Positions 37,027 to 57,634 of a stretch of 64,000 nt of DNA are shown piece after piece. The stretch comes from Pseudomonadota bacterium (lineage in GTDB: Bacteria; Bdellovibrionota_G; JALEGL01; DATDPG01), in NCBI GenBank assembly GCA_043809315.1, contig JAZDDX010000027.1, forward strand, positions 6,943-70,942. The letters are read 5' to 3'. The notes beneath the pieces were generated by a model. The model saw only the letters and a list, made by a program, of their open reading frames with translations, was not told the DNA's origin and made no database searches. Position numbers and translations under genes: made by a program. Each line of letters begins with the position of its first letter. The first letter of the stretch is position 1.

Positions 37027-37101
37027 GGGCGATTAACTCAGCGGGAGAGTGCCATCCTCACACGGTGGAAGTCACTGGTTCGAATCCAGTATCGCCCACC
37101 A
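37027..37101 (+). tRNA. tRNA-Val (anticodon CAC), 75 nt including the encoded CCA.
   Basis: Manual fold. Acceptor GGGCGAT/ATCGCCC, U8, D-stem ACTC/GAGT, anticodon stem CCATC/GGTGG, loop CTCACAC (U33, CAC, A37), T-stem ACTGG/CCAGT, T-loop TTCGAAT, discriminator A, CCA. Confidence 0.85.
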
Positions 37102-48223: not shown

Positions 48224-49156
48224 TCAGTGAATCAGTTTTTTCCGCCGGAGCGCGATGAAGTACTTCCAGCCGTAGATAAACCAGAATCGTTTCTCGCGGG
48301 GGGTTAGTTCGATCCGGATCCCTTGCGTCCGTTCGATCTTCTGGATCAGGTAGTCGAGCCAGTTTTCGACGGTGAACATCCCCTTCGGCCAGCGGAGCTG
48401 CGCACGGAGGCGGCTTTTTGAGAGAAAGATGCGAGTGGTGAATCTCCCGATGGTCTCACGCAGGAAAGCAGGCTTCTTGAAGAAGGCACCGTCCCGTTCC
48501 TCGGCCCAGCTGTGGAGGATCAAGCGATACGCCGTGCGATAGAACTCCTCGTCCGACCGAAAGAGGCGTTCGATCTTGTCGGCCGCTTCGACCCGAACGT
48601 CTCCGTAATAACTCAGTCGAAGCGCTTCCAGGATGAACGTATCGAGGGTGAAGTTCTCGGGAAGGAGGTGGCGGGTTTGGGCTGCCACCGTTCTCATCGC
48701 CGCAGCTTGCGCCGCGACGATTTCCTCGAGGCCTCCTGGGTCACGCGTCCAGGCCGCGCCCATCCGTTTCGAGAAGCGTCCGAGTTGGTACACATCGCGA
48801 GCCCTGGGGGAGGTGTCGTGTGCAAGGTCGCCGAAGCTCAAGACGTTGTATTTGGCCGTCCGGCCGTCGACGGTGAAATGATAGATGCTGGGGGGGAGGA
48901 TCCAGTTCACCACTGTGTGCAGAAGAGATCGGTGGAAATCGCGGTACCGCCGGACGAGAACGAAAAAGTCAGGGGTGGAGGTGGAGGAGCGAGTCACTGA
49001 GCTCAAGCAGGAGCCGTACACCAAGATCGCATCGGCTCGTTCACCCACCAAGCTGCGCAGGGAACTCAGGAACGGCTCGACGACTGCCGGCTCGAAGGAG
49101 GTGAGCTGGTTCCGGATGAGCGACTCCAGCGGACTTGTCGGTTCAAGCTCCGGCAA
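48224..49156 (-). CDS. Tam41/Mmp37-like nucleotidyltransferase (putative phosphatidate cytidylyltransferase-like).
   Basis: Motifs aligning to yeast Tam41: ILVYGSCLS...TPDFFVLV (Tam41 VFGYGSGVF...PQIDIILGV) and EALRLSYYGDVRV (Tam41 ALSYAGDIRY). Confidence 0.55.
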   Translation of the reverse strand: MPELEPTSPLESLIRNQLTSFEPAVVEPFLSSLRSLVGERADAILVYGSCLSSVTRSSTSTPDFFVLVRRYRDFHRSLLHTVVNWILPPSIYHFTVDGRTAKYNVLSFGDLAHDTSPRARDVYQLGRFSKRMGAAWTRDPGGLEEIVAAQAAAMRTVAAQTRHLLPENFTLDTFILEALRLSYYGDVRVEAADKIERLFRSDEEFYRTAYRLILHSWAEERDGAFFKKPAFLRETIGRFTTRIFLSKSRLRAQLRWPKGMFTVENWLDYLIQKIERTQGIRIELTPREKRFWFIYGWKYFIALRRKKLIH

Positions 49157-50183
49157 CGCCGTTCCGTGTGGTATTCTTCACCTTGTACATCGCTTCGTCC
49201 GCGAGACGGATCAACTCGTCTTTGGTCTGTGCATCCTCCGGGAACGTGGCAACGCCGAAGCTGGCGGTGAAATGAACATTTAAGCCCTTGTCGGTCAGGA
49301 ACATGTTCCCCTCGACCGCTTTCCGGAGGCGTTCGGCAACCATGATCGCCGCCGGTTTTTCAGTTTCAGGCAGGAGAATAACGAACTCATCCCCTCCGTA
49401 TCTCGCGCCGTAATCGACGCTGCGGATATGCTTCTTTAAGACCTGGGCGGTTTCTCGGAGAAGTTGCGATCCGTGGATGTGTCCCCAGGTGTTGTTCATC
49501 TCTTTGAAGTGATCGAGATCGAGGAAGATCATCGAGAAATGTTTCTTGTATCGGGCCGCACGTGCAACCTCGGTCTCCAGGAGCGTGTGGAGGTGGCGGA
49601 CATTAAACAAGCTCGTCAAATCGTCGGTGATCGTGAGCTCCTGGACCCGCTGGAAGTTCCGGACGTTTTCAATCGCGATCGCAGAGTAGTCGGCGATCAC
49701 CGCCAGCGTCGTCAAATCCTCCTCCCCGAACGGGACCGTCCCATTCCCTTTGCGGCGGATTTCGATCACCCCCAGCGTCTTCCCTTTGCTCCGGATCGGA
49801 ACACAAATCAGGGAAAGCTCCGGATCGGTTGGAAGAATGTCCTGAGGCGGCGTGTTCTTTTTCTCCTTGGAAAGGTCCGGGAGGAGAACCGGTTTGGCGG
49901 CCTGAGCCGCCCAGCCGGGAATCCCTTGCCCGAGCTGGACCACTTTGGAGCGGTCGACTGCGGGGTCGTTGATCAGGATCTCATACTTGAGCGTCATCTC
50001 CCGTTCGTCCAACATCAAGAGGGACCAGGAGGTGGGGCTCAAGAGTTCGGAGATCTTCTGAAGGATGACGCGAAGGACCTCTTTGATGTCGAGAGTCGAG
50101 GTGAGGGTCTTGCCGATTTCGCTTAAGATCCGCAGCGCATCGACGGTCCTCTTCAACTCCTCGAGAAGTTTGTGTCCTTCCAT
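49143..50183 (-). CDS. GAF domain-containing diguanylate cyclase (GGDEF).
   Basis: N-terminal GAF followed by a GGDEF domain with intact RYGGDEF and the RxxD I-site region. Start at the MEGHKLLEEL ATG. Confidence 0.85.
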   Translation of the reverse strand: MEGHKLLEELKRTVDALRILSEIGKTLTSTLDIKEVLRVILQKISELLSPTSWSLLMLDEREMTLKYEILINDPAVDRSKVVQLGQGIPGWAAQAAKPVLLPDLSKEKKNTPPQDILPTDPELSLICVPIRSKGKTLGVIEIRRKGNGTVPFGEEDLTTLAVIADYSAIAIENVRNFQRVQELTITDDLTSLFNVRHLHTLLETEVARAARYKKHFSMIFLDLDHFKEMNNTWGHIHGSQLLRETAQVLKKHIRSVDYGARYGGDEFVILLPETEKPAAIMVAERLRKAVEGNMFLTDKGLNVHFTASFGVATFPEDAQTKDELIRLADEAMYKVKNTTRNGVAGA

Positions 50184-50227
50184 CCGGTTCGTCCTTCGGT
50201 TATGGATGACTCTAACGTGGAGGCGAA

Positions 50228-50815
50228 ATGAAGCAAGTCGGACGTATCGTCCTGGCGTCGGCCTCTCCAAGGAGGAAGGAGTTTTTCGATCTCCTGGGGA
50301 TCCGGGTGGAGGTGATGCCGGCCAACGTTCCGGAGGGGGAATCGGGCGGAAACCCGCAACGGTTGCCGCTTCGGAACACGGTGGAAAAGCTCAAAGCGGT
50401 CCGTACGAAGCTGGGGCCGGGGTTCGCCGGATGGCTGATCGGTGCCGACACGGTGGTTGCGCTCGGTCGGAGAGTCTTGGGAAAACCGAAGAACCGGCAG
50501 GAAGCGAAACGGATGCTGACCGAGCTGTCGGGGAATCGCCACAAGGTCTTTACCGGGTATCGGGTTCAGAAGGCGAGCGGTCAGTACCGGGAAGGGGTGG
50601 TCGAGACGATGGTCGAGATGGTGCCGATGACCGAGGCTCAGATCGACTGGTACGTCGAAAGCGGCGAGCCGGACGACAAGGCGGGGGCGTACGCGATCCA
50701 GGGGAAGGGGGGGGCGTTCGTCCGGACAATCGTCGGGTCGTATTCGAACGTCGTGGGTCTTCCGCTGGTAGAAGTCTTGACAGCACTGCGTGAGCTGAAG
50801 GCGATCGAGGACTAG
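50228..50815 (+). CDS. maf: Maf-like nucleoside triphosphate pyrophosphatase.
   Basis: ILASASPRR N-terminal signature and Maf fold. Confidence 0.85.
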   Translation: MKQVGRIVLASASPRRKEFFDLLGIRVEVMPANVPEGESGGNPQRLPLRNTVEKLKAVRTKLGPGFAGWLIGADTVVALGRRVLGKPKNRQEAKRMLTELSGNRHKVFTGYRVQKASGQYREGVVETMVEMVPMTEAQIDWYVESGEPDDKAGAYAIQGKGGAFVRTIVGSYSNVVGLPLVEVLTALRELKAIED

Positions 50816-51508
50816 ATGATCCGGGAACGGTGGGAAGAGCTGCTCGCGAGCGTGGAGCGTAGCTGCGCCCGCGCGGGACGTTCCCCCGATTCCGTTCGGA
50901 TTGTTGCGGTTTCAAAAAACCATCCGCCAGATGCGGTCATCGAGGCGTATCAAGCGGGGGTTCGCATCTTCGGCGAGAACTACGTCCAGGAGGCGCTCCC
51001 GAAAATCGAAGCAACCCGGGGGATGACTCCAGAGGCGAGTTGGCACTTCATCGGCGCGCTTCAGTCGAACAAGGCAAAGCAGGTCGTCGGGCGGTTCTCG
51101 CTTCTTCACTCTCTCGACCGCTGGTCGCTCGCGGCGGCGTTAGAGAAAGAAAAGAGGAAAACAGGACTGGTGACCCCAGGGTTGCTCGAGGTGAACCTGG
51201 CGGGCGAGGAGTCCAAATCAGGCGTTGCCGTGCAGCAAGTTCGACCCCTGTTGGAGCGGATCTCGGGCGAAACGTCGATTGAGGTGCGAGGGTTGATGAC
51301 GTTTCCTCCGTTGTCGGACGATCCGGAGGAGGCCCGTCGGTACTTCGCCAGTGCCCGGGAGCTGGGGAACGAGATCGCATCCTGGAAGTTGCCCCGGATC
51401 GAGATGAATGAGTTTTCGATGGGGGTGACGAGTGATTTCGAGGTTGCGATCGAAGAGGGGGCCACCCTGATCCGGATCGGGACCGCTATTTTTGGAACTC
51501 GCTCTTGA
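50816..51508 (+). CDS. yggS: YggS family PLP-binding homeostasis protein.
   Basis: PLP Lys context (IVAVSKNHP) and alanine-racemase N-domain-like fold. Confidence 0.85.
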   Translation: MIRERWEELLASVERSCARAGRSPDSVRIVAVSKNHPPDAVIEAYQAGVRIFGENYVQEALPKIEATRGMTPEASWHFIGALQSNKAKQVVGRFSLLHSLDRWSLAAALEKEKRKTGLVTPGLLEVNLAGEESKSGVAVQQVRPLLERISGETSIEVRGLMTFPPLSDDPEEARRYFASARELGNEIASWKLPRIEMNEFSMGVTSDFEVAIEEGATLIRIGTAIFGTRS

Positions 51509-51511
51509 CTC

Positions 51512-51544
51512 TTGATATTGTGTATACTTAAGTATACAATAATA
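51512..51544. promoter_or_regulatory. AT-rich near-consensus sigma70 promoter (TTGATA, 17 nt spacer, TACAAT) carrying a perfect 18-nt palindrome TGTATACTTAAGTATACA (51521-51538). Putative operator.
   Basis: Positions were checked against the flanking ORF ends. The -10 ends 6 nt before the GTG at 51547, so the wHTH gene would be leaderless or start at its internal ATG. Confidence 0.5.
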
Positions 51545-51546
51545 TT

Positions 51547-51924
51547 GTGATCGGACGCTTGGCGGAAGAGATCCTGTCCCATTCCACGATGGCGGTATTG
51601 CGCGCCCTATCGGAGCGTGCCTGCGGGGTCCGGGAGGTTGCCGATCTGTGCGGTCTCTCTCCGCGCGGTAGTTCTCTGGTTCTCCATCGCTTGGTGGTGG
51701 CGGGGCTAGCGGAACGAACTGGCCAGGCCTATTCCGCCGCTTTGTCTGCGGACGACGCCGAGATCCTTCGAATCCTGGTTGGGGCGGCCGAAAAGACCGA
51801 ACTCAGACGCCGTGCCGGGGATCTCTCCGCGGGCGCCAAACGATCGGTCCAATGGATCGACGGGACGCTCGGGAAACTTCAACAGGTGAGGAAGAGATAC
51901 CGTGGGGCCGATCGAACTTCTTGA
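51547..51924 (+). CDS. Small winged-HTH transcriptional regulator, putative antitoxin (AbiEi-like) of the downstream nucleotidyltransferase.
   Basis: wHTH segment (VREVADLCGLSPRGSSLVLHRLVVAGLAERTG). Overlaps the downstream gene by 23 nt. An alternative ATG start lies at ~51589. Confidence 0.5.
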   Translation: MIGRLAEEILSHSTMAVLRALSERACGVREVADLCGLSPRGSSLVLHRLVVAGLAERTGQAYSAALSADDAEILRILVGAAEKTELRRRAGDLSAGAKRSVQWIDGTLGKLQQVRKRYRGADRTS

Positions 51925-52534
51925 GTCGGCTGTCCGGGCTCTGCGCAAAGTTGATTGCCGTTTTGCGGTTGCGGGGGGGATTGCCGCGAACCTGTTCCGC
52001 TCCGAGCCGCGTCTCACGCAAGACGTAGACCTGTTGCTTCTTGCCGATCCAATCGAAAAGACGGAAGAGATCGCCACGCGGTTTCTGCAAAAGCTTGGGT
52101 TCGAAGTGGGGCGAGCCAAGGTGGCTGATCTGGTGCAAGCGCAGATGATGGGGAAGAAAACGACACCGGTCGTATTGTTGGTCGGCCGGGAGAAAGGAAC
52201 AAAAGGGGAAGGGGGAGTCGATATCCTTCTTCCCAAGATGGCGTGGGTACAGGGGGCGATCGAACGTGCCCAGCACCATCGGGTCGATTTCGGCTTCGGG
52301 AAACTCCCGACCATTACGATTGAAGACTTCATCGTGTCGAAACTCTTTGCTCTCCGGGATAACCCGAGCCGGTTCAAGGATCTGGACGATCTGCAGTCGC
52401 TTTTTGGCTCGAACCCCTCGCTGGATCTCGTTTATCTGGCAGGGGCGTTCGGACGGTACCATCTCACGCTGCCGAGGGAGCTCAGGCGACTTGCTCCGAA
52501 AGGGATACGGGCGGCAGCTCGAAGGCCGGGTTGA
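51902..52534 (+). CDS. AbiEii/DUF1814-like nucleotidyltransferase (putative type IV TA toxin-like NTase).
   Basis: Pol-beta NTase motif FAVAGGIAANLF...R.TQDVDLLL, which matches the DUF1814 G[GS] and R.[ST].D.D pattern. GTG start overlapping the wHTH gene. Confidence 0.55.
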   Translation: MGPIELLESAVRALRKVDCRFAVAGGIAANLFRSEPRLTQDVDLLLLADPIEKTEEIATRFLQKLGFEVGRAKVADLVQAQMMGKKTTPVVLLVGREKGTKGEGGVDILLPKMAWVQGAIERAQHHRVDFGFGKLPTITIEDFIVSKLFALRDNPSRFKDLDDLQSLFGSNPSLDLVYLAGAFGRYHLTLPRELRRLAPKGIRAAARRPG

Positions 52535-52567
52535 CAGCGAGGCGCCGCCCCCTTACCATAACGCGAC

Positions 52568-53356
52568 ATGTCAACACATCGGTGGGTCATTCTTTTGTCT
52601 GCACTTCCGTTCCTCGCGGGAGGATGCGCTCGATCTTCCAAGCCGGCAGAAAACTCTCGTCCGCTCTATGCCCGGAGCGTCGAGACGGTCACATTCGACG
52701 TAGCCTACATGAGAGGAGCCGAACCGACGGTCGACGAATGGCCTCGCGGATCCGCCTTTTTCGGTCTCTTTCGGACAAATCTAGCGGCTCTTTTGAAGGA
52801 CTCCGGGAAGGAGGTTGTCGTTCCTTCCTCCTTGAGTGAAGCGGAAGAGATTCCGGCAGGATCCGGCCTGTACACCAAGGAAGAGGTCACTGACTTGGCG
52901 AAGAAGTACCGGAAAGGTTCAACCTCCTCTAATCACGAAGCGCGGATCTTCATTCTTTTTGTCGATGGGTTTCTCTCGGGCGGGGGTAAAAAGATGAACG
53001 ATATCGTCGGCCTCAACGTCGACCCCGACGGAGTCGTGGCTGTCTTTAAGGGTGCGATCGACCAGAGAACGAAAAATCGACCCGATCTTCGGAGCTCGCT
53101 GGAACAGGTCGTGATGATTCATGAGGCGGGGCACGCCATTGGTTTGGTGGCAAACGGGATTCCTACCGTCTCCGCGCACCTCGATGCCGACCATCCGGGT
53201 CATTGCACGAACCCAAAGTGCATCATGCATTTCAAGATGGAGGGTGGGGCGGCGCTGATGGACCTTCTCGACAATGCTGTGATGGGTTCGCGGACCATCC
53301 TCTTCGGGCAAGAGTGTCTTGACGACGTCCGTGCCCGACTATCGACCCCCGCCTGA
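52568..53356 (+). CDS. Lipoprotein zinc metallopeptidase with an archaemetzincin (M54)-like motif.
   Basis: Lipobox LAGGCA. HEAGHAIGL...GHCTNPKCIMH resembles the archaemetzincin HExxHxxGxxHCxNxxCxM signature. Confidence 0.55.
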   Translation: MSTHRWVILLSALPFLAGGCARSSKPAENSRPLYARSVETVTFDVAYMRGAEPTVDEWPRGSAFFGLFRTNLAALLKDSGKEVVVPSSLSEAEEIPAGSGLYTKEEVTDLAKKYRKGSTSSNHEARIFILFVDGFLSGGGKKMNDIVGLNVDPDGVVAVFKGAIDQRTKNRPDLRSSLEQVVMIHEAGHAIGLVANGIPTVSAHLDADHPGHCTNPKCIMHFKMEGGAALMDLLDNAVMGSRTILFGQECLDDVRARLSTPA

Positions 53357-53394: not shown

Positions 53395-53892
53395 ATGAAA
53401 CTGACCCCGCTCGATCTTCAACATCATACGTTCCGGAAGTCCCTCCAGGGGCTCGATCCGAAACAGGTGGCAGCGTTTCTGGAGCTGGTCCGGAATGACT
53501 GGGAAGAGATGTTGCGGGAGAACCATAAACTTAAAGTACAGGTTGATGACTTGAATAAGAAGGTGTTGGAATACAAAGAAAAAGAACACACGCTTCAAGA
53601 GACGTTGATGATGGCTCAGAAGCTGGTCGAGGGGATGAAAAAGACCAGCCAGAAAGAGGCCGACGTTCTGATCGGCCAAGCCGAGCTCCAGGCCGACAAG
53701 ATCCTCCACCAGGCGCACGAGCGGCTGACGCAGATCATCGATGAGATCAACGACCTCAAGAAACAGCGGGCGGAGTTCGAGGGGAAATTGAAGGGGATTC
53801 TCGAATCGCACCTTCGCCTGATCGACCTCCAGAAGGAAGCGCGAGAAAAGGTCCATCTCGAGGACGTCGGGCTTTTGCCCAAAGCGATGTAA
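53395..53892 (+). CDS. divIVA: DivIVA domain cell-division protein.
   Basis: DivIVA N-terminal motif (LTPLDLQHHTFRKSLQGLDPKQVAAFLE) and coiled coil. Confidence 0.8.
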   Translation: MKLTPLDLQHHTFRKSLQGLDPKQVAAFLELVRNDWEEMLRENHKLKVQVDDLNKKVLEYKEKEHTLQETLMMAQKLVEGMKKTSQKEADVLIGQAELQADKILHQAHERLTQIIDEINDLKKQRAEFEGKLKGILESHLRLIDLQKEAREKVHLEDVGLLPKAM

Positions 53893-53911: not shown

Positions 53912-54766
53912 GTGGTGCTCCTGGACGGCAAGGCGTTCGCAAAAAAAATCCGAAGCGATCTTACGACCCGGATCCGGACGTTTTCGGCCCGGACCGGGGT
54001 CATTCCTGGGTTGGCGACGCTCTTGGTCGGCGACAATGCCGCATCCAAGGTCTACGTCGGAAGCAAAGTCAAAACGTGCGGCGAGGTGGGGATCCATTCC
54101 CGGAAGATCGAGTTGTCCGCCGACTTGGCGGAAGGGTCGCTTATCAAAGAGATCGAAGCTCTCAACCGCGATCCCGCGATCCACGGGATCCTCGTCCAGC
54201 TCCCCCTGCCGAAGCAGATCCGCCCGGAGCGGATCCTGGATGCCGTCGATCCTTCGAAAGATGTCGATGGCTTTCATGTCATCAACGCCGGGCGGCTTGC
54301 GACCGGGCAGCCGGGGTTTGTTCCCTGCACCCCCCTGGGAATCGTCCGCCTTCTGGAGGAATACAAAGTGCCGATCGAGGGGAAGAGGGCGGTGGTCGTG
54401 GGAAGGAGCAACATCGTCGGGAAGCCGGTGGCGCAGCTCCTGTTGAATCGCCACGCGACCGTGACAATCTGTCACTCGCGTACGATAGATCTCCCGGCGG
54501 TCTGTCGCGAAGCCGACATCCTGATCGCGGCGATCGGGAAGGCCGAGGTCGTCCGCGGTGATTGGATCCAGCCGGGGGCGGCGGTGGTCGACGTCGGGAT
54601 CAACCGAAACCCGGACGGGACGTTGACGGGGGATGTAAAGTTTTCGGAGGCATCGGAGCGGGCAGGATGGCTGACCCCGGTTCCGGGGGGGGTGGGACCC
54701 TTGACGATAGCGATGCTTCTCTCAAACACGCTGGAAGCGGCGGAGAAATGGATGGAGCGGAAATGA
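53912..54766 (+). CDS. folD: Bifunctional methylenetetrahydrofolate dehydrogenase/cyclohydrolase.
   Basis: N-terminus LLDGKAFAKKIR..., THF_DHG_CYH domains, and GRSNIVGKP. Confidence 0.9.
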   Translation: MVLLDGKAFAKKIRSDLTTRIRTFSARTGVIPGLATLLVGDNAASKVYVGSKVKTCGEVGIHSRKIELSADLAEGSLIKEIEALNRDPAIHGILVQLPLPKQIRPERILDAVDPSKDVDGFHVINAGRLATGQPGFVPCTPLGIVRLLEEYKVPIEGKRAVVVGRSNIVGKPVAQLLLNRHATVTICHSRTIDLPAVCREADILIAAIGKAEVVRGDWIQPGAAVVDVGINRNPDGTLTGDVKFSEASERAGWLTPVPGGVGPLTIAMLLSNTLEAAEKWMERK

Positions 54767-55860
54767 CGGAGCTGAAGCGGACGCCGTTGTACGAACGGCA
54801 CAAGAGTCTGGGGGGGAAGATCGTCCCGTTCGCAGGATGGGAGATGCCGCTCGAGTACAGCGGGATCTTGAAAGAGCACGAAGCGGTCCGGACTGCGGTC
54901 GGGATCTTCGATGTGAGCCACATGGGGGAGATCGAGATCCGGGGGAAGCAGGCACTGGAGTTCTGCCAGAAAGTCTCCACCAACGACGCCTCCGCCTTGA
55001 AGCCGGGAAAAGTCCAGTACTCGGCGATCCTGAATGCCGAGGGGGGGATCGTCGATGACTGCACGCTCTATCGGATCGGGGAGGAACATTTCCTTTTTGT
55101 CGTGAATGCCTCGCGGAAGGAGAACGTGCTTCGCTGGTTCGAGGGACACCCGATGGAGGGGGCGAAGGTCGAGGACCGGAGCGACGATTACGGGTTGCTC
55201 GCCCTTCAGGGGAAAAAGTCCGAAGATCTCTTGAGCCGTCTCGTCCATCGCGATCTTTCGACGGTCGGATACTACGAGTTCACGTGGACCGAACTCTCCG
55301 GTGCCGCAGTGATGATCTCTCGGACCGGATACACGGGCGAGGACGGGTTCGAGATCTATCTCCCGTGGGAGAAAACCGTCGAGATTTGGGATCTCCTGAT
55401 GAAGGAAGGGAGTTCGGTCGGGATCACGCCGATCGGTCTGGGCGCGCGCGATACGCTTCGTCTGGAGATGGGGTACTCGCTCTACGGAAACGAGTTGAAC
55501 GAACACACGACTCCTCTCGAGGCGGGGTTGGCCTGGATCGTCAAGATGGACAAAGGAACATTTTTCGGCCGGAACCGTCTGGTTGAGCAGAAAGAGAAGG
55601 GGCTCACGCGGAGGATCCGCGGCATCAAGATGATCGACCGCGGGATCCCGCGTCCGCACTACGAGATCTATTCCGCCGGCAGGAAGATCGGGGAGGTTAC
55701 GAGCGGGACCTTTTCCCCGACCCTCAAGCAGGGGGTGGGGTTGGCGATGCTTCCGGCGGAGTTGAAGGAAGGGAACGAACTCTCGGTTCGGATCCGCGAG
55801 AAGGATAACCGGGCGGCGATCACGAAACCTCCGTTTGTCGCAGGGTCGGTGAAAAAATAA
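54763..55860 (+). CDS. gcvT: Glycine cleavage system aminomethyltransferase T.
   Basis: Start at MTELKRTPLYERH (ATGA overlap with folD). GCV_T domain. Confidence 0.9.
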   Translation: MTELKRTPLYERHKSLGGKIVPFAGWEMPLEYSGILKEHEAVRTAVGIFDVSHMGEIEIRGKQALEFCQKVSTNDASALKPGKVQYSAILNAEGGIVDDCTLYRIGEEHFLFVVNASRKENVLRWFEGHPMEGAKVEDRSDDYGLLALQGKKSEDLLSRLVHRDLSTVGYYEFTWTELSGAAVMISRTGYTGEDGFEIYLPWEKTVEIWDLLMKEGSSVGITPIGLGARDTLRLEMGYSLYGNELNEHTTPLEAGLAWIVKMDKGTFFGRNRLVEQKEKGLTRRIRGIKMIDRGIPRPHYEIYSAGRKIGEVTSGTFSPTLKQGVGLAMLPAELKEGNELSVRIREKDNRAAITKPPFVAGSVKK

Positions 55861-55895
55861 ATCCCTTGCGGGGGTAAAAGTTCTGTGATGAGAAA

Positions 55896-56297
55896 TTGAC
55901 CATGGAAATCCCGGATGATCTTCGTTACACGCGCGAACACGAGTGGGCGCGCATTGATCTGAAACAGAAAACCGCGACCATCGGCCTCACGGACTATGCC
56001 CAGGAGCATTTGGGGGACGTGGTGCACGTCGATCTCCCCGAGGAGGGGGCGGAGCTTGCGCGCGAGGAGCCGTTCGGGAGCGTCGAGTCGGTGAAGGCGG
56101 TTTCCGATGTGTTTGCCCCGATCTCCGGAAAGGTGATCGAGATCAATGATGACCTTCTCGATTCCCCGGAAATGATGAACGAAGATCCGTACGGTGAGGC
56201 GTGGCTGGTGAAGGTCAAGTTCACCGACACCAAGGGGATCGATAAACTGATGGACGCTGCGGCATACAAAAAATACTGCGAATCGCAGGAAGAATAA
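55896..56297 (+). CDS. gcvH: Glycine cleavage system H protein.
   Basis: Lipoyl-lysine motif region (ESVKAVSD) and YTKEHEW N-terminus. Confidence 0.9.
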   Translation: MTMEIPDDLRYTREHEWARIDLKQKTATIGLTDYAQEHLGDVVHVDLPEEGAELAREEPFGSVESVKAVSDVFAPISGKVIEINDDLLDSPEMMNEDPYGEAWLVKVKFTDTKGIDKLMDAAAYKKYCESQEE

Positions 56298-57634
56298 TGC
56301 GTTACATTCCCCTGACCGGCGCCGACCGGGAGGCGATGCTCAGGGAGATCGGCGTCCAATCGATCGACGACCTCTTCCGTTCGATTCCGGCGTCGTCCCG
56401 GAAGAAGAGCGCCCCGGAACTGCCGGCGGCGAAGACCGAATCGGAACTTCTCGGATATTTTCACGCTCTGGCCCAGAAGAACCTCCCCAACGGGGAGAAA
56501 TGGCTCTCGTTTCTCGGGGGAGGGGCGTACGACCATTTCGTGCCGACGATCGTCGACGCGCTCTCCAGCCGCGGGGAGTTCCTGACGGCATACACGCCGT
56601 ACCAGCCGGAGGTGAGTCAGGGAACCTTGCAGGCGATCTTCGAATTTCAATCCCTGGTCGCGAATCTCTTCGGTCTCGATTGCGCGAATGCCTCGATGTA
56701 CGACGGGGCGTCGGCTGCAGCCGAGGCGGTTTTGATGGCGATGCGGATCAAGGATGGGAACCGCATTTTTCTTTCGAAGGGACTCCATCCGGAATACCAG
56801 CAGGTGATTCGGGCCTATCTCCGGGAAACGGAAGTAGAGATTGTCGAGCTCGAACTCGATGCTTCCGGTCGGACGGTTCTTCCGACGCTTCCGACCGGCA
56901 CCCTGGCGGGGGTGATATCGCAACCGAACTTCTTCGGCGTCATCGAGAACCTGTCTCCGCTGGCTGACTCCGTTCATGCGGGCGGCGGTTTGTTGATCAC
57001 CGCGACTCCGGAGGGGATGGCGTTCGGCGCAATCCGGGATCCCGGTTCGGAGGGGGCCGACATCGTCGCCGGGGAGGGGCAGTCGTTCGGAAACTACCTG
57101 AATTACGGCGGGCCGTACGTCGGACTGCTCGCGACGAAACGGGAATATGTGCGGCAGATTCCGGGGCGGCTGGTCGGAAGGACCGTCGACCGCGAGGGAA
57201 AAGAGGGGTACGTGTTGACGCTCGCGACCCGCGAACAACACATCCGCCGCGAGAAGGCGACCTCCAACATCTGCACGAATCACTCGCTCTGCGCCCTGCG
57301 AGCCTGCATCTATCTCGCGACGGTCGGGGAGCGCGGACTGCGGGAGATCGCGCTCCGAAATATGTGGGCGGCACACAAGCTGCGGACGAGTCTGCTGGAA
57401 CTGAAAGGGGTCGAGGCGGTCTACAAGGGGCCGGTCTTCAACGAGTTCACGGTTCGGCTCCCGATTTCAACCGAGGCGTTTCTCTCGAAGATGGAAGCAG
57501 AAAAAGTCCTCGGGGGGATTCCGATCTCGAAATGGGATCAGGCCCGGACCCACGATCTCCTGATTGCCGTCACCGAGACGAAGAGCCCGGACGATCTGGA
57601 TCGCTACGTTGCCGCGGCTAGGAAGGCGCTATGA
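56297..57634 (+). CDS. gcvPA: Glycine dehydrogenase (decarboxylating) subunit 1.
   Basis: GDC-P N-terminal half. Start overlaps the gcvH stop. Confidence 0.9.
   Translation: MRYIPLTGADREAMLREIGVQSIDDLFRSIPASSRKKSAPELPAAKTESELLGYFHALAQKNLPNGEKWLSFLGGGAYDHFVPTIVDALSSRGEFLTAYTPYQPEVSQGTLQAIFEFQSLVANLFGLDCANASMYDGASAAAEAVLMAMRIKDGNRIFLSKGLHPEYQQVIRAYLRETEVEIVELELDASGRTVLPTLPTGTLAGVISQPNFFGVIENLSPLADSVHAGGGLLITATPEGMAFGAIRDPGSEGADIVAGEGQSFGNYLNYGGPYVGLLATKREYVRQIPGRLVGRTVDREGKEGYVLTLATREQHIRREKATSNICTNHSLCALRACIYLATVGERGLREIALRNMWAAHKLRTSLLELKGVEAVYKGPVFNEFTVRLPISTEAFLSKMEAEKVLGGIPISKWDQARTHDLLIAVTETKSPDDLDRYVAAARKAL

Follow-up and report, generated by a model that had tools for sequence, protein, structure and literature searches.

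The gap between yggS and divIVA in the 64-kb stretch of DNA analysed here (contig JAZDDX010000027.1, positions 6,943 to 70,942; hereafter the window) is filled by three genes on the same (+) strand, which encode a small winged helix-turn-helix (wHTH) protein, a nucleotidyltransferase (NTase) and a lipoprotein with a zinc-peptidase motif. We read these genes as two independent units, a toxin-antitoxin (TA) operon of the MenAT/AbiE kind and an unrelated lipoprotein peptidase that is its neighbour, and we put the probability of this reading at about three in four. If so, bases 51512-52534 would be a two-gene TA operon of the MenAT/AbiE (DUF1814 nucleotidyltransferase) kind, in which the 210-aa NTase would be a MenT1-like toxin and the 125-aa protein would serve both as antitoxin and as autorepressor, its ArsR-like winged helix binding GTATAC-N4-GTATAC in its own promoter and its long C-terminal helix contacting the toxin. 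Neutralisation would occur by sequestration and/or by induced auto-phosphorylation of Thr39, as MenA1 does with MenT1, and translation of the toxin would be coupled to that of the antitoxin via a Shine-Dalgarno sequence within the 3' end of the antitoxin gene. The peptidase gene (52568-53356) would then be a chance neighbour of the TA pair, placed in a variable slot between yggS and divIVA. The features concerned are as follows.

51512-51540, + strand: promoter-like site TTGATA-17-TACAAT of the antitoxin-toxin operon, 10/12 consensus matches, coinciding with an AT-rich island
51522-51537: putative operator, a perfect palindrome GTATAC-TTAA-GTATAC (GTATACTTAAGTATAC) located in the promoter spacer and extending into the -10 element
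51547-51924, + strand: wHTH gene, antitoxin candidate; GTG start, 125 aa
51902-52534, + strand: NTase gene, toxin candidate; GTG start, 210 aa, PF08843 (AbiEii/DUF1814)
52531-52559, + strand: a further promoter-like site, TTGACA-17-TACCAT, at the 3' end of the NTase gene; 10/12 consensus matches only
52568-53356, + strand: lipoprotein peptidase gene; 262 aa, MSTHRWVILLSALPFLAGGC, HEAGH...GHCTNPKCIMH

The wHTH and NTase genes overlap by 23 nt, and 34 nt separate the NTase gene from the peptidase gene. An earlier sequence-only reading of this DNA had described the three genes, their motifs and an AT-rich island ahead of them, and all of these features were found where it had placed them; its domain calls were accurate, and the island (51512-51544) was confirmed, G/C making up 6 of its 33 nt. 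Two antisense (-) open reading frames (ORFs) lie opposite the NTase gene (51803-52462, 219 aa; 51706-52377, 223 aa), a usual coding-strand artefact of high-GC DNA, and we discounted them because homology supports the + strand gene only.

The NTase matches PF08843 at 35.1 bits (gathering score, 22.5; E = 1.7e-8) over residues 16-185, which takes in profile positions 10-184 of 238. The AbiEii models of PADLOC match it at E values of 6e-6 to 5e-5, and NCBI labels the identical protein as an AbiEii/AbiGii toxin family protein. A collection of 5.8 billion proteins yielded 110 homologues with 39-100% identity, mostly from uncultured Verrucomicrobiota or Kiritimatiellia-type metagenome-assembled genomes (MAGs) and from MAGs labelled 'Pseudomonadota'. 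When 42 homologues were aligned, A22, G25, R33, R37, T39, D41, D43, D107, E141, D142 and D163 were invariant and G26, K147, K159, D160 and D162 nearly so. The pol-beta-type motifs are complete, with hGG...DxD plus the motif III/IV residues, and the catalytic triad D41, D43 and D107 is intact. The motif AGG...RLTQDVDLL, on which the sequence-only reading had based its assignment, is indeed present, with G25/G26, T39, D41 and D43 invariant or nearly so in the family, and the catalytic Asp residues, whose loss would have spoken against that assignment, are invariant on alignment. A HEPN-MNT pair was also considered as an identity for these genes and was rejected, as the HEPN partner is absent and the NTase matches PF08843.

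Among solved structures, the best match of the NTase family profile was MenT1 of Mycobacterium tuberculosis (8an4/8an5; E = 1.3e-7, residues 3-177). Direct BLASTP of the NTase against MenT1 aligned the GG...EPRxTxDVD core, with a pairwise identity of 36% over 45 residues. Conserved residues of the NTase align with D41, K137, D149 and D152 of MenT1, and R37 and T39 also have counterparts; in MenT1, T39, D41, K137 and D152 were examined by mutagenesis, and R37 was reported to be important in structural homologues (PMC11375011). The invariant T39 lies two residues before the first catalytic Asp and aligns with the phospho-acceptor Thr in RFTRDVD of MenT1, the equivalent phospho-acceptors being T39 in MenT1 and S78 in MenT3. 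Judged by these residues, the NTase looks catalytically competent and MenT1-like. MenT toxins add nucleotides to the 3' ends of tRNA and thereby block aminoacylation, and MenA1 neutralises MenT1 by sequestration and by induced auto-phosphorylation of T39 (PMC10435456, PMC11375011). By analogy, the NTase of the window may carry out the same tRNA nucleotidyltransferase chemistry.

The pairing of the NTase gene with a small upstream gene was seen repeatedly. Eight NTase loci were backed by DNA sequence (the window, L001, L002-4, L165, L166/7, L168, L169 and L170/1), and the NTases of the seven others are 40-67% identical to that of the window. A gene for a protein of 113-137 aa lies upstream and overlaps the NTase start in 8/8 loci; the upstream products of six loci align as homologues, with 14-47% identity to the window protein. 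The flanks of the loci all differ and include a xanthine dehydrogenase gene, Hsp70/DnaJ genes with PrkA, an HD hydrolase gene, ADH/SDR and DeoR genes with pyruvate-dehydrogenase genes, a dTDP-sugar isomerase gene, and a Zip transporter gene with a helicase gene. Because the flanking genes are different at every locus, the pair appears to move as a unit. The patchy spread of a two-gene unit over unrelated contexts is the usual signature of TA modules. The TA-type anatomy that had been proposed for the pair is thus supported by the overlap of the two genes, the PF08843 match above threshold, the Asp triad, the palindrome embedded in the promoter and the recurrence in unrelated contexts.

The region upstream of the small gene was also conserved. 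The palindrome GTATACTTAAGTATAC occurs only once in the window, where chance alone would give 0 occurrences, and the GTG of the wHTH gene sits 6 nt past the -10 hexamer. A common architecture, consisting of a TTGAxA-like -35 element, a 17-18-nt spacer, a TACAxT-like -10 element and a start codon 6-7 nt further on, was seen in the window and in L001, L002, L165, L166, L168 and L169 (by alignment for the first six), the exception being L170, which has another palindrome and an unclear -10 element. The spans of the start codon and the -10 element are as follows.

Window: 51535-51549
L001: 4728-4752
L002: 5619-5633
L165: 1860-1878
L166: 3618-3633
L168: 297-311
L169: 2427-2439

The antitoxin start (ATG or GTG) thus lies 6-7 nt after the -10 element in 7/8 loci, a distance into which a Shine-Dalgarno sequence cannot fit, so the antitoxin mRNA is probably leaderless. 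This spacing suggests that leaderless translation of the antitoxin is conserved across a family that spans 14-47% protein identity. The toxin start has its own signal, GAGGAAG, located 8 nt upstream of the NTase GTG and within the 3' end of the antitoxin gene. GTATAC-N4-GTATAC is kept in four loci (the window, L001, L002 and L165), all of which have the recognition helix SPRG[AS]S[LM][VI]L, and L166 and L168 have both a different recognition helix and a different repeat. A repeat that changes along with the recognition helix is as expected of an operator and its repressor, and the wHTH protein may well bind this site. AbiEi antitoxins autoregulate through inverted repeats in their promoters (cited in PMC10435456); the window pair has in its own promoter a unique perfect palindrome that is conserved in homologous loci, and this putative operator might serve such autoregulation.

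The 125-aa product itself gave weak HTH matches only (HVO_A0261_N at 8e-5, MarR_2 and HTH_IclR). In its predicted model, an ArsR/MarR-like winged helix (residues ~12-64) leads into a single long helix at the C-terminus (68-121). There was no AbiEi Pfam match for this product, and it is not the two-domain protein of ~200-300 aa that AbiEi/COG5340 would be. The AbiEii-type TA arrangement suggested by the sequence-only reading therefore holds in part: the anatomy of the pair fits, but the upstream partner is a short ArsR-like wHTH protein and not AbiEi (COG5340).

Several points weigh against a TA operon with an unrelated neighbour. The antitoxin is outside all known AbiEi and MenA families. MenT2 of M. 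tuberculosis showed no detectable toxicity (PMC10435456), and membership of the family is no guarantee of a toxin. The case for toxicity, neutralisation, tRNA modification and DNA binding is drawn entirely from homologues whose relationship is distant. The NTase subfamily was not found on viral contigs, plasmids or phages, and the evidence for mobility consists of the varying contexts only. As for the separation of the two units, no terminator-like site was found between the NTase and peptidase genes, and co-transcription and co-acquisition of all three genes in this lineage are possible, given the 34-nt gap and their common G+C content at third codon positions (GC3).

Some of these points would equally suit a non-toxic regulator-enzyme pair, in which an NTase that modifies RNA, protein or a small molecule is controlled by the wHTH protein. 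The pair has a stable chromosomal seat and adjoins yggS also in a relative whose NTase is 79% identical; searches of phages, plasmids and viral contigs did not find it; no toxicity is seen with some DUF1814 proteins, MenT2 among them (PMC10435456); and the PADLOC AbiEii matches are weak. However, the overlapping small gene, the promoter palindrome and the patchy, unrelated contexts form the standard TA signature, and all residues required for MenT1 activity are conserved together with the regulatory Thr. We therefore consider the regulator-enzyme alternative quite unlikely.

A related question is whether the pair is chiefly an abortive-infection (AbiE-like) anti-phage system and not a stress or addiction module. 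AbiEii is the founder of the family, PMC11375011 calls AbiE very abundant among defence systems, and the AbiEii profiles of PADLOC do match at E values of 6e-6 to 5e-5. On the other hand, the antitoxin is not AbiEi, the toxin with its 210 aa is nearer to MenT1 than to proteins of AbiEii length, and the neighbourhood is free of further defence genes, of integrases and of phage genes. We regard this possibility as improbable too, if slightly less so than a regulator-enzyme pair; it would be a biological role on top of the favoured TA mechanism and not another mechanism.

The sequence-only reading had grouped all three genes into one accessory module, possibly for defence or stress, in which the peptidase might be cargo or might couple with the NTase. 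In favour of this, they follow one another on one strand, the NTase and peptidase genes being just 34 nt apart without a terminator-like site between them, and all three have a GC3 of 0.64-0.66 against 0.72-0.79 in the flanks. The peptidase, however, was not linked to the pair elsewhere. We scanned 80 metagenomic loci of the peptidase family, found with a 10-sequence alignment, with up to 5 kb of flank, and relatives of the NTase, wHTH, YggS, DivIVA, Maf or FolD proteins were found in 0/80. The neighbours of the peptidase-family loci form small lineage-specific groups without a universal partner. Conversely, a zinc-peptidase Pfam match was present among the called neighbours in 0/7 of the other NTase loci. 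The closest homologue of the peptidase (P0112; 55% identity, metagenome JGI 3300075153) is flanked by a serpin gene and by the end of its contig, with an ATP-synthase epsilon gene upstream; the 79%-identical NTase (P0002) comes from the same metagenome but lies on a separate contig. Direct coupling would also be topologically awkward for an exported lipoprotein and a cytoplasmic NTase/wHTH pair.

The peptidase gene also has a promoter-like site of its own. The -10 element (TACCAT) of the second site ends 8 nt before the peptidase ATG and no Shine-Dalgarno sequence was found (52531-52570); the gene thus probably has its own promoter, and its transcript may be leaderless or near-leaderless. Because of the missing co-occurrence, the separate compartments and this promoter-like site, a functional module of three genes is not supported, and we consider it very improbable. 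The closest homologue lies directly downstream of a 406-aa serpin gene. In this single case, the two genes, one for a protease and the other for an inhibitor of proteases, might form a regulated pair.

As an individual protein, the peptidase is predicted from sequence to be a lipoprotein, with the signal peptide MSTHRWVILLSALPFLAGG-C20 and the lipobox Cys20. This Cys is kept, after a hydrophobic segment, in at least 90% of 62 family members. NCBI annotates the gene (V1495_08230) as a 215-aa product with its start at Met48, by which the first part of the ORF (52568-52708) and with it the signal peptide are lost; we preferred the 262-aa ORF because of the near-invariant Cys20 in the family alignment. 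The zinc motif HEAGH...GHCTNPKCIMH described earlier was confirmed and can be extended to H185-E-xx-H189-xx-G192-x19-H212-C213-x4-C218-x-M220-x29-C250-xx-D253. H185, E186, H189, G192, H204, D206, H212, C213, N215, C218, M220, C250 and D253 are invariant or nearly so in the 62-member alignment, and the core HExxH...HCx4CxM...CxxD is fully invariant.

Family models recognised this protein poorly. The 262-aa product matched no Pfam family, with no Peptidase_M54 match at E<=0.1, and scored 23.9 bits with the archaemetzincin model NF033823, against a cut-off of 145. Across the family, NF033823 gave weak matches only, in 24/62 members with a best E of 9e-7, and no Pfam or NCBIfam model covers the peptidase family. 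The family is nevertheless large: an exhaustive HMMER search returned 977 cluster representatives (50% identity clusters) at E<=1e-3 and 52 at E<=1e-30, nearly all of them full-length proteins of 250-300 aa with ~30-40% identity. A word-indexed search had returned two matches, the peptidase itself and one homologue; the idea of a near-unique protein was rejected as a sensitivity artefact of that search compared with exhaustive HMMER. A sequence-profile search of the PDB with the family gave insignificant HExxH matches only. For a confident predicted model, the best fold matches were archaemetzincins, and fragilysin and ADAMs came next; a metzincin fold nearest to the solved archaemetzincins is predicted accordingly. 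We infer that the peptidase is an extracytoplasmic, lipid-anchored zinc endopeptidase of a large, unnamed archaemetzincin-like family.

How the three genes came to lie at this position was considered by a survey of the yggS-divIVA interval. The neighbouring genes in the window are as follows.

50228-50815, + strand: maf
50816-51508, + strand: yggS; Ala_racemase_N match
53395-53892, + strand: divIVA; PF05103, E = 3e-38
53912-54766, + strand: folD, followed by gcvT-gcvH-gcvP

Among 80 yggS loci of species-representative genomes, in which the best YggS match was just 51% identical to that of the window, divIVA lay within ~2.4 kb downstream of yggS in 11. In five of these 11 the two genes are directly adjacent (Bacteroidota or Ignavibacteria-type MAGs) and in the other six they are separated by proC, usually together with yggT; none of the 11 intervals carries the three genes of the window. 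The view that these two genes normally lie close together is thus only partly true. In the 'delta'-type MAGs with yggS near divIVA (L018, L046, L056 and L082), the interval contains proC and yggT. Both genes are absent from the window, and the classical yggS-proC-yggT-divIVA block has therefore been broken up in this lineage.

The claim that the three genes were inserted between yggS and divIVA fared in a similar way. The GC3 values of the wHTH, NTase and peptidase genes are 0.66, 0.65 and 0.64, and those of ten flanking genes are 0.72-0.79; with a window mean of 0.74 and a standard deviation (sd) of 0.065, the shift of the three genes is mild, ~1.2-1.5 sd. This common lower GC3 is consistent with an accessory status of all three, as the claim would have it, but the insertion is not specific to the window genome. 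The 79%-identical NTase gene in metagenome JGI 3300075153 also has a yggS-type gene directly ahead of it, the 395 nt between the two having no called gene but room for the small one, and the position on the yggS side is therefore older than the window genome. A relative with an empty site was not found among the species representatives, in which YggS is at most 51% identical. Flanking direct or inverted repeats were limited to short, chance-level matches, and no tRNA, integrase or RNA family was found in the region. On the whole, the gap between yggS and divIVA behaves as a variable slot that holds accessory genes.

If the pair acts as predicted, it would add a compact antitoxin architecture to the MenT/AbiEii toxins, and it would make it simple to test whether auto-phosphorylation of the conserved Thr, induced by the antitoxin, is family-wide. 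It is also a clean case of conserved, probably leaderless expression with an operator-like repeat embedded in the promoter. The peptidase family, with ~980 clusters at 50% identity, has no model and no studied member, and would represent a bacterial exported offshoot of the archaemetzincins. To our knowledge, the archaemetzincins are themselves poorly understood, and their own substrates are still unknown. One could go further and propose both a distinct MenAT subclass, in which the wHTH represses a leaderless promoter through GTATAC-N4-GTATAC and the C-terminal helix, like the lone helix of MenA1, docks onto the MenT1-like toxin and triggers Thr39 auto-phosphorylation, and a new exported peptidase family derived from archaemetzincins, with the third zinc ligand provided after the His/Asp insertion and the Cys4 finger replaced. 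The former would be a minimal antitoxin that joins the DNA binding of AbiEi with the neutralisation mode of MenA1. This combined proposal is tentative, and we hold it to be possible rather than probable. Neither unit changes current understanding, and the main value of the analysis is that it separates a routine TA pair from an unrelated neighbour.

Two further regions of the window deserve mention. A 310-aa ORF at 48224-49156 (-) matches Tam41/Mmp37-like phosphatidate cytidylyltransferase (PF09139, E = 2e-7) and shares 14 nt with the end of a gene for a GAF-GGDEF diguanylate cyclase (49143-50270, -). The Tam41 family is mainly mitochondrial, and a bacterial homologue coupled to a gene for cyclic di-GMP synthesis is unusual for that reason. 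Downstream of divIVA, folD, gcvT, gcvH and gcvP follow directly (53912-57634). The listed gcvT ORF starts at a TTG at 54562 and has a ~200-nt overlap with folD; translation probably begins near 54748. Save for one tRNA-Val at 37027, Rfam elements, a glycine riboswitch included, were not found in the window.

Among known systems, the peptidase can be compared with the archaemetzincins (M54; AmzA of Methanopyrus kandleri, 2X7M; Archaeoglobus fulgidus, 3ZVS; human AMZ1/2; CarG of Myxococcus xanthus). It has in common with them the HC-x4-C-x-M block of the Met-turn, as found in the archaemetzincin signature HEXXHXXGXXHCX4CXMX17CXXC (PMC3427221). In contrast to the archaemetzincins, which are cytoplasmic, it is predicted to be a secreted lipoprotein and is ~100 residues longer. 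The canonical position of the third ligand (G+3) is Ala or Asn in the peptidase family, and a 17-residue insertion with the invariant H204 and the nearly invariant D206 stands ahead of the HC dipeptide. In addition, the last CxxC is replaced by CxxD, with a spacer of 29 residues instead of 17; since three Cys and one Asp take the place of four Cys, a Cys4 zinc finger is impossible in the window peptidase. Compared with the adamalysin/fragilysin-type metzincins (ADAMs, BFT and B. fragilis metalloproteinase II), it is without a pro-domain or a disintegrin domain, its third-ligand region is unlike theirs, and the identity is 13-18%.

The TA pair resembles MenAT1 (Rv0078B/Rv0078A; PDB 8AN4, 8AN5) in the size of the toxin (196 aa in MenAT1 and 210 aa in the window), in the upstream position of the antitoxin gene and in the GG...R-x-T-x-D-V-D core with the same numbering of R37, T39, D41 and D43, whereas the overall identity of MenT1 to the window NTase is low. 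The antitoxins differ: MenA1 has a mass of 7.4 kDa and lacks a DNA-binding domain (PMC11375011), whereas the antitoxin of the window is a 125-aa protein predicted to have an ArsR-like wHTH and a long helix, and its promoter bears a palindrome. AbiEi, MenA3 and MenA4 have a mass of at least ~22 kDa, with an antitoxicity domain at the C-terminus, whereas the window antitoxin has a single helix after the wHTH, and AbiEii-type proteins are longer than the window NTase. AbiE (AbiEi/AbiEii, Streptococcus agalactiae) and MenAT3/MenAT4 (with a COG5340 or COG4861 antitoxin) nevertheless have the toxin family PF08843 in common with the window pair, and their antitoxins and that of the window are alike in the N-terminal wHTH, which in the window protein is predicted, and in the inverted repeats of their own promoters, which in the window form a putative operator.

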